Part shown: positions 7,753 to 20,500 of the stretch, piece by piece
Position numbering within the stretch: position 1 is the stretch's first letter
Layout of the letters: the number at the start of each line of letters is the position of its first letter
Assembly (NCBI GenBank): GCA_951406725.2
Contig: OX597816.1
Span: 50,468,001-50,532,000, forward strand
Direction of reading: 5' to 3'
DNA length: 64,000 bases
Source: Octopus vulgaris
Taxonomy: Eukaryota
The notes under the pieces: generated by a model
What the model was told of the DNA's origin: nothing
Database searches by the model: none
Seen by the model: only the letters and a program-made list of their open reading frames with translations
Made by a program: the position numbers and the translations under genes

Positions 7753-7863
7753 AAGCCGACTACGGCTGCTATAATGGTACGATTACAATTGTAACGGCAA
7801 TGATGGCCGTCTCCCCACGAGCCAATCAAAGCTAAAAAATGATAACATTATCGTAGCACCAAA

Positions 7864-9165
7864 ATGTTTTTGGAAACTAAAAGGAAAACTATATCAGTAT
7901 ACCAAATCGCTTGTCCTATGATTAATCTGGAAGCGCGTCCCCCAGGGAAGAGCCAGCCTGGGATCGAAAAGTCATCAACTGGCACAAACTCTTCTCCGAA
8001 TACGGACATGGATGGTCACTTGAACGGGAAATCCCCCAACTCGAGCCCTCCAAGTTCACCACCACAACCACCACAGAAAGAAAAATGTAAGCGGAACAAA
8101 TGGACCCGAGAAGAGTATAAAGAAGTAATATACGCTTATTACTATGCATTAGGTAGGCCATCCCAAGAGAGACACACCGCAAACTCTTACAGTATATGGA
8201 GAACACGGAATCAAGACAGTAGGCCCTATTTGGACGAGAACAAATTAGCAAATGTGAGGGGGGATATCTTTAGAAATAACAGACTCACAGACAGTGAAAT
8301 AAGCGCGATCAAGCACGCAACGGAAAATGACATAAATATAAGACACAAAGGAAATGAAGAATCAGATGAACAGTATAGCCCGCCACGAGGCTTAATTGAA
8401 AGACTGCCATCTGACCAAAGTAGGCAAAGGCCTGAAGATACAAGAAATTCTATTGTACCAGTTAAAGATAGCCAGGAAAACGAAAAAACAACAGTAACTG
8501 AAGATCTCGCATTTGCTGAAGAACACAGAGAGTCTATGGCAGAAATGAGGCAGAAAATCCTGAATACGCTTGAAGTTGTAAGACATACAAGTATGAATGA
8601 TAGAGAACCGCTTCATAAACTCTCAAATACAAACCAAAATAAAAAACAAATCCAAATTGGCAACTATGTAACAAATGAAATAATACGAGAATTAAAACAT
8701 GATTTTACTGAGTTAAATGGAATTATTTACGCTTCTGCTAGGGCAATTGAAACCAGCTGTATGCCCCCGAAAAAACAAAGAAAACAAAACCTGGGAAGAA
8801 ATCAAACCTGGAGAAGTAAAATTGAAAAAGAGATTGAATTTATGAGAGGGGAAATATCAATATTAAATGAACTAATATGTGGAAATGATGTAAGATCCAG
8901 AACAGGAAGAAAGATGAAGAGAAAATTTGGATCCTCACCAAGAGAAGAACTGATATCAATAAAAGAAACGCTGAAACAAAAATTCCAAGCAAAAGCCCAA
9001 AGAATACGAATATTTGAGAAGAGAAACAAGTTTTACAAGCAAAATAAGCTGTTCACATCCAATGCCAAAAAATTCTACAGAGAAATAGGGAAGGAGAAAG
9101 TATCCATTAAAGACCCCCCCTCCCATGGAAGAAGTTCAAAACTTTTGGAAAAGGATTTGGAGTGA
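7864..9165 (+). pseudogene. N-terminal half of the retrotransposon ORF
   Basis: KWTREEYKEVIYAYY-like N-terminal motif and basic R4-type region QNKLFTSNAKKFYR. Shifts +1 at the C-run near 9114-9124 into the frame MEEVQNFWKRIWSD*, which is the frame of the RT ORF. Confidence 0.85.
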
Positions 9166-11530
9166 CTAGAAGACGTACAACATAAATGCAGACTGGATTA
9201 TACAAACTGAAGGATCCTACCAAAATTTACAACAAGCATGGGATGACATCACAATAGCAGACCTAAGAAAGGCACTCACGAAGGCCCATAATTGGAAATC
9301 CCCCGGTAAAGATAGGGTGCCGAACTTCTGGCTCGCATCGCTCCCATGCGCACACGGTAAGCTAGTTCAGCTGCTCAATGGAATTATTAGAGACCCAAAG
9401 AAAACACCTGAATGGTTAGCAAGTGGCATTACTTACCTACTCCCAAAAAATAACGAAACCAACCTTCCAAAAAGCTATCGGCCTATAACCTGTCTATCCA
9501 CCACGTATAAAATCCTAACATATGCATTCATGGAGAAGAACGATATTTTCCCCATTGAACAAAAAGGGTGCCGCCGAGTCTCTTACGGATGCAAAGATCA
9601 ACTGCTAATCAATCGTATGATCCTTGAGAACTGTCACAACAAGCGCAGAAATCTCAGCACCGCATGGATTGACTATGAAAAGGCCTTCGACAGTATACCG
9701 CATCCATGGATCTTGAGATCGCTGGACATCTTCAAAATTTCCCCTGTGATTTCAAACTTCCTGAAGCACAATATGTCGTTGCGGAATACGAATCTCCAAT
9801 TATACCACTCTAATGGAGTACTTGCCTCAGAAAATATAAACATCAACTGTGGAATTTTTCTAGGTGACTCACTTTTACCTTTAATATTCTGCATAGCCCT
9901 AATACCCCTTACAAGTGAATTAAACAGAACAGGGTATGGGTATAAAATTGCCAATAAAAAAATAAGCCATCTATTTTATATGGATGACTTAAAACTTTAT
10001 GGTAAAGTCAATAATGAACTTGAAGGCCTATTGCGCACCGTGAAAGCATTCAGCGATGACATCGGGATGGAGTTTGGACTTGAGAAGTGTGCCAAGGCCA
10101 CTTTCCAGAAAGGGAAAGTGAAGACCACAAATTCAGTCGTGTTAGATGTTGACACAGTCATAAGAGAGCTTGAGCAAGAACAAACATACAAATATTTAGG
10201 GATAAATGAAAGCTCTGGTATTCAGCATGCAAGCATGGAAGAGAAAATCAGGAAGGAATGTTATAGGAGAGTTCGTGCAGCCCTGAAATCTGAACTAAAT
10301 GCACGTAACAAGGTGTTAGCTATAAATTCCCTAGCAGTTTCAGTTGTTACTTATAGCTACAATGTGTTGAACTGGAATATGAGTGAAGTAAAGAATATAG
10401 ATAGAAAAATACGCAAGCTGCTGAGTTGTAATAGGATGCACCACCCAAAGGCAGACGTAGATCGCCTTTACCTTCCCAGAGCCCAAGGAGGTCGAGGCCT
10501 GATCCAATTTGAACTAGCTTACAAAACAACCACAATTGGACTGGCCAAATATCTCGAAATATCGAATGACTGGATGCTAAAGCTCGTGGAAAATCACGAG
10601 AGACGAAAGAAGCTCCATTCTATCATCAAGGAAAGCAACAAATTTGCTATTGATCTCGTGCAGGATACCCAAACTGAACAACCCGAGGGAAGTACGGCAA
10701 CTATTGTTGCAAAGAAGGTGAAAATGATGGCAATGAAAAAAGCGCACGAGCAATTGGCTGATAGGTGGGAGGAGAAACCTCTGCACGGCAAATATGTGAC
10801 CTGCAGCAAACAAGCTGATGTTGACCAGAAGCAAACCCATCAGTGGCTGCGGAGCTCAGGGCTAAAAGCAGAGAGCGAAGGTTTCATCCTGGCTGCTCAA
10901 GACCAAAGCCTATTAACCCGGAACTACCAGGCCAATGTGATGAAAAATGGAGCAGACCAAAAATGCCGATTCTGCAACGACATGATTAAAACAGTGGACC
11001 ACCTAATCTCTGGATGTAAAGTCTTAGCACCAGTGGAGTATAAATTAAGACATGACAGAATTGGCCAATATCTCCACTGGCTAATAAGTCGGCATTACAA
11101 TATCAAAACTGCCGACAAGTGGTATAATCACCACCCTGAGGCTGTAACTGAAGGAGAAAATGTAACCATTCTGTGGGACTTTCCAGTACATACAGACCGA
11201 ACCATCAAGGCCAATAAACCAGATATTGTTGTGAAAGACCAAAACAATAAAGTTTGCTTATTGATCGACATGAGCATCCCCTGTGATCATAATATCTTAG
11301 CGAAAGAGTTTGACAAGCTCAGAAAATATAAAGACCTACTCATTGAAATTGAGAAAATGTGGCATCTCAAGGCGGTTACAATACCAGTGATCGTAGGAGC
11401 ACTAGGAATGATCAAGAAGGGAACCGAAAATTATATGAGAATGATCCCTGGCTTACCATCCCTGCAAGAAGTGCAAAAGATTGTCTTAACTGGTACATCA
11501 CACGTATTGAGAAGAGCATTGTCGATGTGA
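9125..11530 (+). pseudogene. Reverse transcriptase + CCHC zinc finger + restriction-like endonuclease (in-frame TAG at 9167-9169)
   Basis: KSPGKD, YRPITCL, WIDYEKAFDS, GIFLGDSLLP (QGD motif altered), LFYMDDLKL, YKYLG, CRFC..HLISGC, RHD, KPDIVV..LIDMSIP..KLRKY. Confidence 0.93.
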
Positions 11531-18969: not shown

Positions 18970-19203
18970 ATGAGTATTATTTTTCGTATATTTTCACTTG
19001 TTTATTGCTTGGGTTGGTGTTGAGTTTGATCTGAGAACATAATATTTTGTGGAGAATGGCAATTTGACGTCTATAACTAGCATGTTGACTGTCCACTTTT
19101 TCGTGTTCAGTCTTTAAATGGTATATATAAATATTTAATCTTCGGATTTTTTTAATATGTTAGACCACTGGTTTCAATTGATAAATATTGATTTCTACCC
19201 TTA

Positions 19204-19246
<43 letters not shown>

Positions 19247-19649
19247 AAGTTTTGCATTCGGTAAAATTTTGTTTATTTTTAGTAGTTTTGACCGCATTGG
19301 TCCCTCTTAGCGTGTTGGTATCTACGAATAGTAATACCCTCAATATAATATAAATGAATATTTTCAAAGAGGAAGAATTTACGAATTTTTTCTCTTACGA
19401 GGTTTTTCACGCTGACTACTGATAATTTCTTTTAAAGATTTTAGCCTCAATTGTTAATTTATATTTTTCACCGGAATAGTTCAATACTGAATATTTATTC
19501 CGACTAGGCAATTTGTACCGAAATGCATTGCGAAAAAGCCCGCCATTTTGCTAGACATGTAAAGATAAACATTCGTACAAGCTACGACGAATTCTACGGT
19601 TGGCTATCGAGTTTGTAATGTTATGTTCTTTCTTATATTTCTTGAGTTT

Positions 19650-19713
19650 GTTGCACTGACGAACATGAAATGCATATTCTGCATTAAATGCGAAATCACA
19701 TGTGATATGTAAC
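19650..19713 (+). ncRNA. Type I hammerhead ribozyme, unit 1 of array
   Basis: GUUGCA-CUGACGA-...-GAAA-UCAC-AU-GUGA-UA-UGUAAC. Stem I GUUGCA/UGUAAC, palindromic stem III AUCACAUGUGAU, AUA triplet (cleavage after 19707). Stem II pairing is ambiguous. Confidence 0.78.
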
Positions 19714-20145
19714 TGAATTCTTTTTTAAAATGATGTGTTTTGAAGTTTTGCATTCGGTAAAATTTTGTTTATTTTTAGTAGTTTTGACCGCATTGGTCCC
19801 TCTTAGCGTGTTGGTATCTACGAATAGTAGTCCCCTCAATATAATATAAATGAATATTTTCAAAGAGGAAGAATTTACGGATTTTTTCTCTTACGAGGTT
19901 TTTCACGCTGACTACTGATAATTTCTTTTAAAAATTTTATCCTCAATTGTTAATTTATATTTTTCACCGGAATAGTTCAATACTGAATTTTTATTCCGAC
20001 TAGGCAATTTGTACCGAAATGCATTGCGAAAAAGCCCGCCATTTTCATAGACATGTAAGGATAAACATTCGTACAAGCTACGACGAATTCTACGGTTGGC
20101 TATCGAGTTTGTAATGTTATGTTCTTTCTTATATTTCTTGAGTTT

Positions 20146-20209
20146 GTTGCACTGACGAATATGCAATGCATATTCTGCATTAAATGCGAAATCACGTGTG
20201 ATATGTAAC
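20146..20209 (+). ncRNA. Type I hammerhead ribozyme, unit 2 of array
   Basis: Same motif 496 bp downstream. Stem III AUCAC-GU-GUGAU. Cleavage predicted after 20203. Confidence 0.78.
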
Positions 20210-20445
20210 TGAATTCTTTTTTAAAATGATGTGTTTTGAAGTTTTGCATTCGGTAAAATTTTGTTTATTTTTAGTAGTTTTCACCGCATTGGTCCCTCTT
20301 AGCGTGTTGGTATCTACGAATAGTCGTCCCCTCAATATAATATAAATGAATATTTTCAAAGAGGAAGAATTTACGGATTTTTTCTCTTACGAGGTTTTTC
20401 ACGCTGACTACTGATAATTTCTTTTAAAGATTTTATCCTCAATTG

Positions 20446-20500
<55 letters not shown>

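Follow-up and report, generated by a model that had tools for sequence, protein, structure and literature searches.

A tandem hammerhead array lies between (TA)n runs

In the window (the whole 64-kb stretch of Octopus vulgaris DNA that was analyzed), TRF identified a tandem repeat at 19244-20456 with a period of 496, 2.4 copies (2.44 units), and 97% matches (Table 1). Met-initiated open reading frames (ORFs) within the array are short, the longest encoding 39 aa on the plus strand and 49 aa on the minus strand. The first-pass annotation had described 2.4 ORF-less units of 496 bp, flanked by (TA)n and carrying hammerheads 496 nt apart, and our analysis confirmed this layout. Because 5' ends vary across the family to which the array belongs, the start at 19244 is read as a 5' truncation point. 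The conserved multi-branch RNA domain is a candidate RT-binding domain, and end site 2, at which the partial third unit halts, may mark the RT start of this copy. Units 1 and 2 diverge by 2.5%, at the older end of the within-insertion range, and the window copy appears to be decaying.

Table 1. Features of the array and its flanks, in window positions (q, position within the 496-nt unit)
Feature	Position	Strand	Basis or remark
5' (TA)n run, half of the microsatellite target	19212..19244	.	TRF; family 3' ends adjoin (TA)n
Unit 1, q1-q496; start is the 5' truncation point	19244..19739	+	TRF, family comparison
Motif GAAATGCA..AAGCCCGCCATTT, q277-305, common to all lineages	19520..19548	+	467 exact pattern matches; consensus fold
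Type I hammerhead motif 1, family-typical (A.C base of stem II, 4-bp stem III)	19644..19720	+	
Predicted cut-to-cut 496-nt monomer (putative circle)	19708..20203	+	Prediction
Unit 2	19740..20235	+	12 differences from unit 1 over 488 compared positions
Conserved multi-branch RNA domain, approximate limits	19775..19920	+	Encloses end site 1, precedes end site 2
Hammerhead motif 2, with private changes predicted to misfold it	20140..20216	+	
Partial unit 3	20236..20456	+	Extends beyond end site 1 (~20347-20353), halts at end site 2 (~20449-20456)
3' (TA)n run	20449..20497	.	TRF

Elsewhere in the window, a near-intact non-LTR retrotransposon occupies 7846-11530 on the plus strand, between (TGA)n and (TAA)n; it has frames of 439 aa and 786 aa (RVT_1, E 3.5e-24) and a C-terminal CCHC and restriction-like endonuclease motif, and by its features we take it to be R4/Dong-like. 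The longest microsatellite of the window is a 2.3-kb (AT)n tract at 59235-61521.

The array belongs to a dispersed family of several lineages

The genome, scanned as 2.8 Gb in 227 contigs, is rich in AT microsatellites. A search with the unit returned 1752 candidates, and the best 40 of these are 96-98% identical and lie on many contigs. Exact matching across the genome gave 707 occurrences of the ribozyme 3' half, 605 of the lineage A motif 3' of the cut, and 467 of the motif common to all lineages, while reversed-pattern controls for all three motifs gave 0. The first 100 listed ribozyme matches represent 82 insertions; by a hand count, which is a floor given that exact matching was used, 7 of these carry two same-strand ribozymes and none carries three, and the 1.2-kb window copy therefore lies at the long end.

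Identity to lineage A is 81-92% for B/C, 72-78% for D, and 65-67% for E and F, and lineage identities overall span 65-98%. Lineage E is young too, with copies up to 98% alike. Head-to-tail periods in three lineages are 495-500, 481, and 484 nt, and a type I hammerhead is present in at least two consecutive ORF-less head-to-tail units. We take the conserved fold and the period of 481-499 nt, shared by lineages 65-75% alike, to suggest selection on the RNA. Low-depth contigs of the family were found in four runs presumed to be RNA, and these contigs are uninformative on strand, ends, and circles. A joint 496 nt back in such contigs was considered as a sign of circles and set aside; it also occurs in apparent DNA runs and reflects genomic tandems.

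Other hammerhead tandem families are present in the same genome. A second family (L069:226-1125), with a period of 494-498 nt and a long stem II, lies in (TA)n; it lacks blastn similarity to the 496-nt unit and has 26 exact pattern matches genome-wide, and a motif related to its hammerhead occurs at L062:5659-5753. A third (L226:5173-6412) has a 565-nt period with 2.2 units at 98.7%, ends at (TA)n, and shares the stem II layout of the 496-nt unit.

The hammerhead fold is conserved across the family and predicted to fail in window unit 2

Motif 1 has the type I core CUGACGA at 19656-19662 and GAAA at 19692-19695, with a predicted cut after A19707, and motif 2 lies exactly 496 nt downstream, with a predicted cut after 20203; these cleavage positions, already proposed in the first-pass annotation, match the core motif in both units. 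The motif consists of stem I GUUGCA/UGUAAC, CUGACGA, a 29-nt stem II, GAAA, and stem III AUCA/UGAU followed by UA, and thereby contains every part of the type I definition (core CUGANGA, GAAA, UH, three helices, and an open stem I). Among 78 parsed motifs, a sample skewed towards lineage A, N7 is U in 40, C in 30, A in 7, and G in 1, and the core is otherwise kept. The closing pair of stem II is usually G10.1-C11.1. Both window copies have A.C, and not G-C, at this position. The same 78 motifs have A.C in 62, G-C in 12, G-U in 3, and U.U in 1; the 15 with G-C or G-U come from older lineages, and lineage E has G-C. An A.C at the base of stem II lowers hammerhead activity.

In 18 aligned family motifs, the hammerhead fold (stem I, 3 bp, a 3x3 loop, a 6-bp hairpin, and a 4-bp stem III) pairs in 96.3% of cells, compared with 19-49% for slid controls. 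Two stem II pairs are altered on both sides in this alignment; these double changes follow lineage and therefore represent few independent events. Both sides of stem I have changed among five lineages; the 4 pairs of stem III are invariant, and the ribozyme fold persists through ~35% divergence. Rfam searches yielded no hammerhead family at gathering over the whole window or at E<=5 over 19200-20500, returning two chance hits; the call therefore rests on the core motif and covariation.

The two window copies behave differently in folding predictions. The MFE fold of unit 1 is the hammerhead, and the pairing probability of stem I is 0.6 in unit 1 versus 0.12 in unit 2, where private changes, seen in 1 of the 78 hammerheads, favour a core-sequestering hairpin. 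The GAAUAUGC/GCAUAUUC fold, proposed earlier as a conformational switch, requires these very changes; because they are private, the proposed switch is better described as decay in one copy. The remaining stems that had been regarded as competing are nested parts of one conserved stem II. As for the palindromic stem III, the description holds for unit 1, where the palindrome is perfect, and fails for unit 2, which has A20196G; only lineage A has the palindrome. That folding must be dimeric is likewise unsupported, with the 4 stem III pairs invariant and the loop non-palindromic in lineages B, D, E, and F. Because the private changes make the hammerhead fold of unit 2 improbable in these models, monomer release from the window locus is doubtful.

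A consensus built from nine full units of five lineages comprises the hammerhead, a trunk helix, and a central multi-branch domain, with a double change in 13 of 81 pairs. The q277-305 motif is predicted to pair with q486-q19 as the trunk helix, whose pairs are mostly invariant and therefore lack covariation support. Its AAGCCCGCCATTT part, which we take to be YY1-like, may be a promoter, as it was initially read, and is predicted to pair into this helix. Folded as a circle, the predicted 496-nt monomer gave z = -4.8 against 60 dinucleotide shuffles.

Insertions end at two sites that are paired in inverted copies

The most informative feature of the family, absent from the first-pass annotation, is where its copies end. 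Family 3' ends adjoin (TA)n at two sites, q112-118 and q214-221, which lie ~145 and ~250 nt past the predicted cut with a spacing of ~105-125 nt. The 5' ends are scattered, indicating 5' truncation, and many copies consist of two arms in inverted orientation. We classified 117 insertions as 66 two-armed inversions, 50 single-orientation copies, and 1 complex case. For 53 of the 66 inversions both ends were assignable, and 51 of these combine site 1 with site 2; the exceptions, one 1+1 and one 2+2, are both ambiguous, and the other 13 inversions have one unclassed end. Of the single-orientation copies, 25 end at site 1, 23 at site 2, and 2 elsewhere. Under free choice, the observed pairing of site 1 with site 2 has a binomial p of 1.6e-13. 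The sets A-top, D, and E were picked by similarity and may be biased; in a set picked mainly by ribozyme pattern, the pairing was mixed in 16 of 16.

Penelope-like elements (PLEs) are described, in the accessible text of Craig et al. (2021, bioRxiv 2021.04.23.441226), as 5'-truncated, with inverted 5' copies and a tail of 30-40 bp at just one of the ends. This tail has been traced to two internal sites, 3' of the hammerhead, at which RT begins (Frangieh et al. 2024, PMC11167929); both target strands are extended, and a PLE dimer is predicted (PMC11167929). The family shows each of these marks, namely 5' truncation, 5' inversion, a tail on one end, and a microsatellite target, and on this sequence evidence its two-site end pattern is the PLE 'tail' signature. 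PLEs of the same genome provide a direct comparison: tails are 30-35 nt in Neptune-type families and ~70 and ~150 nt in two Hydra families. The tail of ~70 nt belongs to Hydra-2, and in Hydra-1 the ends lie 52-65 or 197-223 nt past the cut and are mixed in 6 of 6 inverted copies.

Copies run through the predicted cut

Among 30 matches chosen 3' of the cut, 25 run through it, and 73 of 75 junctions across the predicted cut keep exact spacing. Of 200 arms, 143 reach the predicted cut; 136 of these continue past it and 7 end within 3 nt. RT from either site on a cut linear monomer would halt at the cut; most arms instead run through. In lineage D, 3 of 25 arms end exactly at the predicted cut, which may hint at cleavage in vivo; it is a hint because many 5' ends also fall within the 25 nt that follow the cut on its 3' side.

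Divergence was compared in 59 insertions (168 pieces at >=92% identity, that is, at least 92%). It is 1.24% between tandem units and 1.02% between inverted arms of one insertion, versus 2.15% between insertions. Tandem units carry matching common lineage alleles in 48 of 51 comparisons, and inverted arms do so in 17 of 17; private alleles were shared 21 times and unshared 112 times in tandem units, and 14 and 74 times, respectively, in inverted arms. The low divergence within insertions and the shared alleles therefore indicate that one unit-length sequence templated each insertion. Taken with the continuity across the cut, these patterns suggest repeated copying of a unit-length template, most likely a circle. 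The first-pass reading of a retrozyme-like, reverse-transcribed element is upheld in this respect, the more-than-unit copies having come from a template continuous across the cut.

Circles have been proposed for PLEs in the available part of PMC4209133 and for retrozymes in that of PMC7229834. PAc, the only PLE assayed in vitro, did not depend on ribozyme cleavage and mainly used RNA that had not been processed as its template (PMC11167929), and among Xenopus retrozyme dimers 1 of 9 was cleaved in vitro, according to the accessible text of bioRxiv 2026.07.22.740005.

Search for a partner Penelope-like element

The first-pass annotation had allowed that all copies might prove to be attached to a Penelope ORF. 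In the stretches examined this is not the case: tblastn over three sets of stretches that partly overlap, numbering 90, 150, and 30, detected no PLE ORF, with RT plus GIY-YIG, joined to a family copy. PLE fragments neighbouring copies are few, and those inspected are set apart from the copy by (TA)n or unrelated DNA, or are on the opposite strand. Conversely, in 172 PLE-bearing stretches, sampled as the best 63-150 of 6,136-28,920 candidates per query, no pLTR homologous to the unit was found, and the unit matched only nested family copies. The partner is therefore argued from architecture only. The families in which no sequence homology to the unit was detected comprise the Neptune-type families, a young GC-rich PLE, Hydra-1, Hydra-2, and an old Hydra-like family.

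By resemblance, Hydra-1 is the best partner candidate, a judgement we hold to be about evenly balanced. It has an 896-aa open frame with a DKT motif and without CCHH, and its hammerhead has a canonical core, a stem II built as in the unit, with 3 bp, a 3x3 loop, and a UGCA hairpin, and a palindromic stem III. The family RNA model scores Hydra-1 pLTRs weakly (19-24 bits, E 0.05-1), and the ~92-99% identity of Hydra-1 within-insertion repeats overlaps the age of the 496-nt family. Its site spacing is ~150 nt, versus ~105-125 nt in the unit, and a comparison of its tail region with the central domain of the unit found no shared fold beyond a hairpin just before site 2.

Several PLEs were recorded during this search. 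The GC-rich PLE (L187-L193; G000:C10:97.80-97.83 Mb and others) is extremely young, with a 1008-aa frame, an identical 186-aa stretch in 95 of 150 scored copies, head-to-tail tandems ~6.2 kb apart, and a hammerhead variant (CCGACGA/GAAA) before the ORF. A young Neptune-type PLE (L061-L066) has a second upstream ORF overlapping its 781-aa RT-EN frame, repeated CCAAT/TGACGTC motifs in the 3' UTR, and a U3/A8-type hammerhead variant. A very young Hydra-clade PLE (L234-L263) has a 727-aa ORF, >99% within-insertion identity, a minimal hammerhead, and a 70-nt tail. One PLE homologue is named from Argonauta.

Comparison with known systems

By its sequence, the 496-nt family falls within the definition of a non-LTR retrozyme, with cleavage and circularity predicted. 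As in the animal non-LTR retrozymes described in the accessible parts of PMC7229834 and Li et al. (2026, bioRxiv 10.64898/2026.07.22.740005), the few-hundred-nt repeat is ORF-less, carries one type I hammerhead per unit, forms head-to-tail copies and a well-folded predicted circle, and coexists with PLEs; the unit is low in GC (32%). Unlike these retrozymes, which those texts describe as long arrays, the family consists mostly of dispersed sub-dimer and inverted insertions in (TA)n, has a long stem II with a 3x3 loop and a 4-bp stem III, and is linked to PLEs by its insertion signature and not by pLTR homology; its circle is a prediction. The unit length, which had been thought unusual, is ordinary, since cricket pDo500 repeats are ~500 bp (PMC2837043) and retrozyme consensus lengths span 51-972 bp (bioRxiv 2026.07.22.740005); 496 nt lies within the reported retrozyme ranges (150-450, 51-972, and about 500). 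The Dolichopoda pDo500 hammerhead satellite also shares the conserved hammerhead and compensatory changes. In contrast to our family, it is satellite DNA making up ~5% of one genome, and PLE-type ends are not described for it in the accessible text (PMC2837043).

PLE insertions and pLTRs, as far as they are covered in the available text of bioRxiv 2021.04.23.441226 and PMC11167929, resemble the family in 5' truncation, partial tandems, 5' inversions, a one-end tail, two internal RT start sites 3' of the hammerhead, and (TA)n targets, found in the Hydra, Neptune, and Naiad clades. Unlike PLEs, the family has no RT or endonuclease ORF, and its tail is ~105-125 nt versus the 30-40 nt in the published portions. 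A PLE origin of vertebrate retrozymes has been argued from co-occurrence and pLTR similarity in the accessible text of bioRxiv 2026.07.22.740005, in which the term 'tail' does not occur. Among the papers listed by literature searches on octopus and cephalopod hammerheads, retrozymes, and PLEs, we found no account of this family or of a site-pairing rule for retrozymes. The retrozyme class, its size, and the circle idea are already published. What the family adds is the allele evidence for a unit-length template and the strict two-site rule, and at the level of sequence it offers unusually clear genomic evidence for PLE mobilisation.

Proposed mechanism and alternatives

We consider it probable that this dispersed ORF-less hammerhead repeat is a non-LTR retrozyme copied by a PLE RT-endonuclease, probably from a ribozyme-made unit-length RNA circle. 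A copy with two same-strand ribozymes (~1 in 10 insertions) would be transcribed, and cutting at both ribozymes followed by ligation, by analogy with published retrozymes, would yield a circle of ~496 nt. A PLE protein, perhaps that of Hydra-1, would then bind the central domain and nick (TA)n. Each target strand would prime RT at a different internal AU-rich site, ~145 or ~250 nt beyond the cut on its 3' side; we observe two end sites that pair strictly, and infer the priming from them. RT would cross the ligated junction for a variable distance and give rise to the 5'-truncated, inverted, or more-than-unit copies, structures that are all observed. Against this explanation, the arms of an inversion overlap in sequence, for which strand displacement or two RNA molecules would be required. 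The absence of pLTR homology in the sampled stretches, the differing site spacing of Hydra-1, the in vitro results on PAc and on the Xenopus dimers, the A.C of lineage A, and the small number of stops at the cut also count against it.

The repeat might instead be a PLE passenger with a linear template, either read-through RNA that escaped cleavage or cleaved monomers between which the RT jumps, in which case the ribozyme would be a weak or protein-gated end-processing element and the circle would be unneeded. This we regard as unlikely. In its favour, PAc RT used unprocessed RNA in vitro without ribozyme cleavage (PMC11167929), lineage A has the A.C mismatch at the base of stem II, some arms halt at the predicted cut, two same-strand ribozymes occur in only 7 of the 82 insertions that the first 100 listed matches represent and three in none, and RT jumps between transcripts of one source locus would also give allele sharing. 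However, purely linear copying only shortens arrays and lets neighbouring units diverge, whereas units of one insertion resemble each other more than units of different insertions do and have private alleles in common; template jumps should leave scars at the junction, yet spacing is exact in 73 of 75; and the ribozyme fold has been kept over ~35% divergence. It is improbable that the unit is merely the pLTR of an autonomous PLE and the copies its 5'-truncated products. All insertion features are indeed PLE-like, and the PLE search scored a limited top fraction of the candidates per query (the best 63-150 of 6,136-28,920), but what lies upstream of a unit is another unit and never common unique sequence. 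No two of the 50 single-orientation 5' flanks match as far as the junction, the four hits ending ~20 nt short; in all inspected cases, (TA)n or unrelated sequence intervened between a copy and the nearby PLE fragment, or the fragment was on the opposite strand; and three lineages have head-to-tail periods of 481-499 nt. Least credible of all is an ordinary minisatellite, or a dead fragment duplicated locally in tandem, in which a ribozyme-like motif arose by chance. Rfam gives no hit, and unequal crossover, which according to the accessible text of bioRxiv 2026.07.22.740005 can add units to a terminally redundant copy, may account for the extra unit of the window locus; the hundreds of dispersed copies, fixed ends, inversions, and covarying fold refute this explanation at the family level.

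Returning to the PLE-copied retrozyme, the family bears on what mobilises animal retrozymes, for which PLEs have so far been proposed from co-occurrence and pLTR similarity, by supplying insertion-level evidence. It also bears on how PLEs make more-than-unit copies, for which ribozyme-made circles are proposed in the available part of PMC4209133 and unprocessed RNA is favoured by the in vitro work of PMC11167929; the family leans towards a unit-length template. Since the RNA is small and protein-free, its end sites are mapped, its fold is conserved, and young candidate partner ORFs exist in the same genome, both questions are directly testable. A broader reading, which we offer as tentative, is that several long-lived ORF-less ribozyme circles of ~500 nt (the lineages of the 496-nt family and the unrelated 495- and 565-nt families) parasitise Hydra-clade PLEs, and that the two RT subunits of a PLE dimer start in an obligately asymmetric way on the circular template, one site per target strand, at two start sites flanking one RNA domain. 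If true, this asymmetric two-site model would explain PLE tails, inversions, and pLTRs together, and the 496-nt unit would be a minimal substrate.
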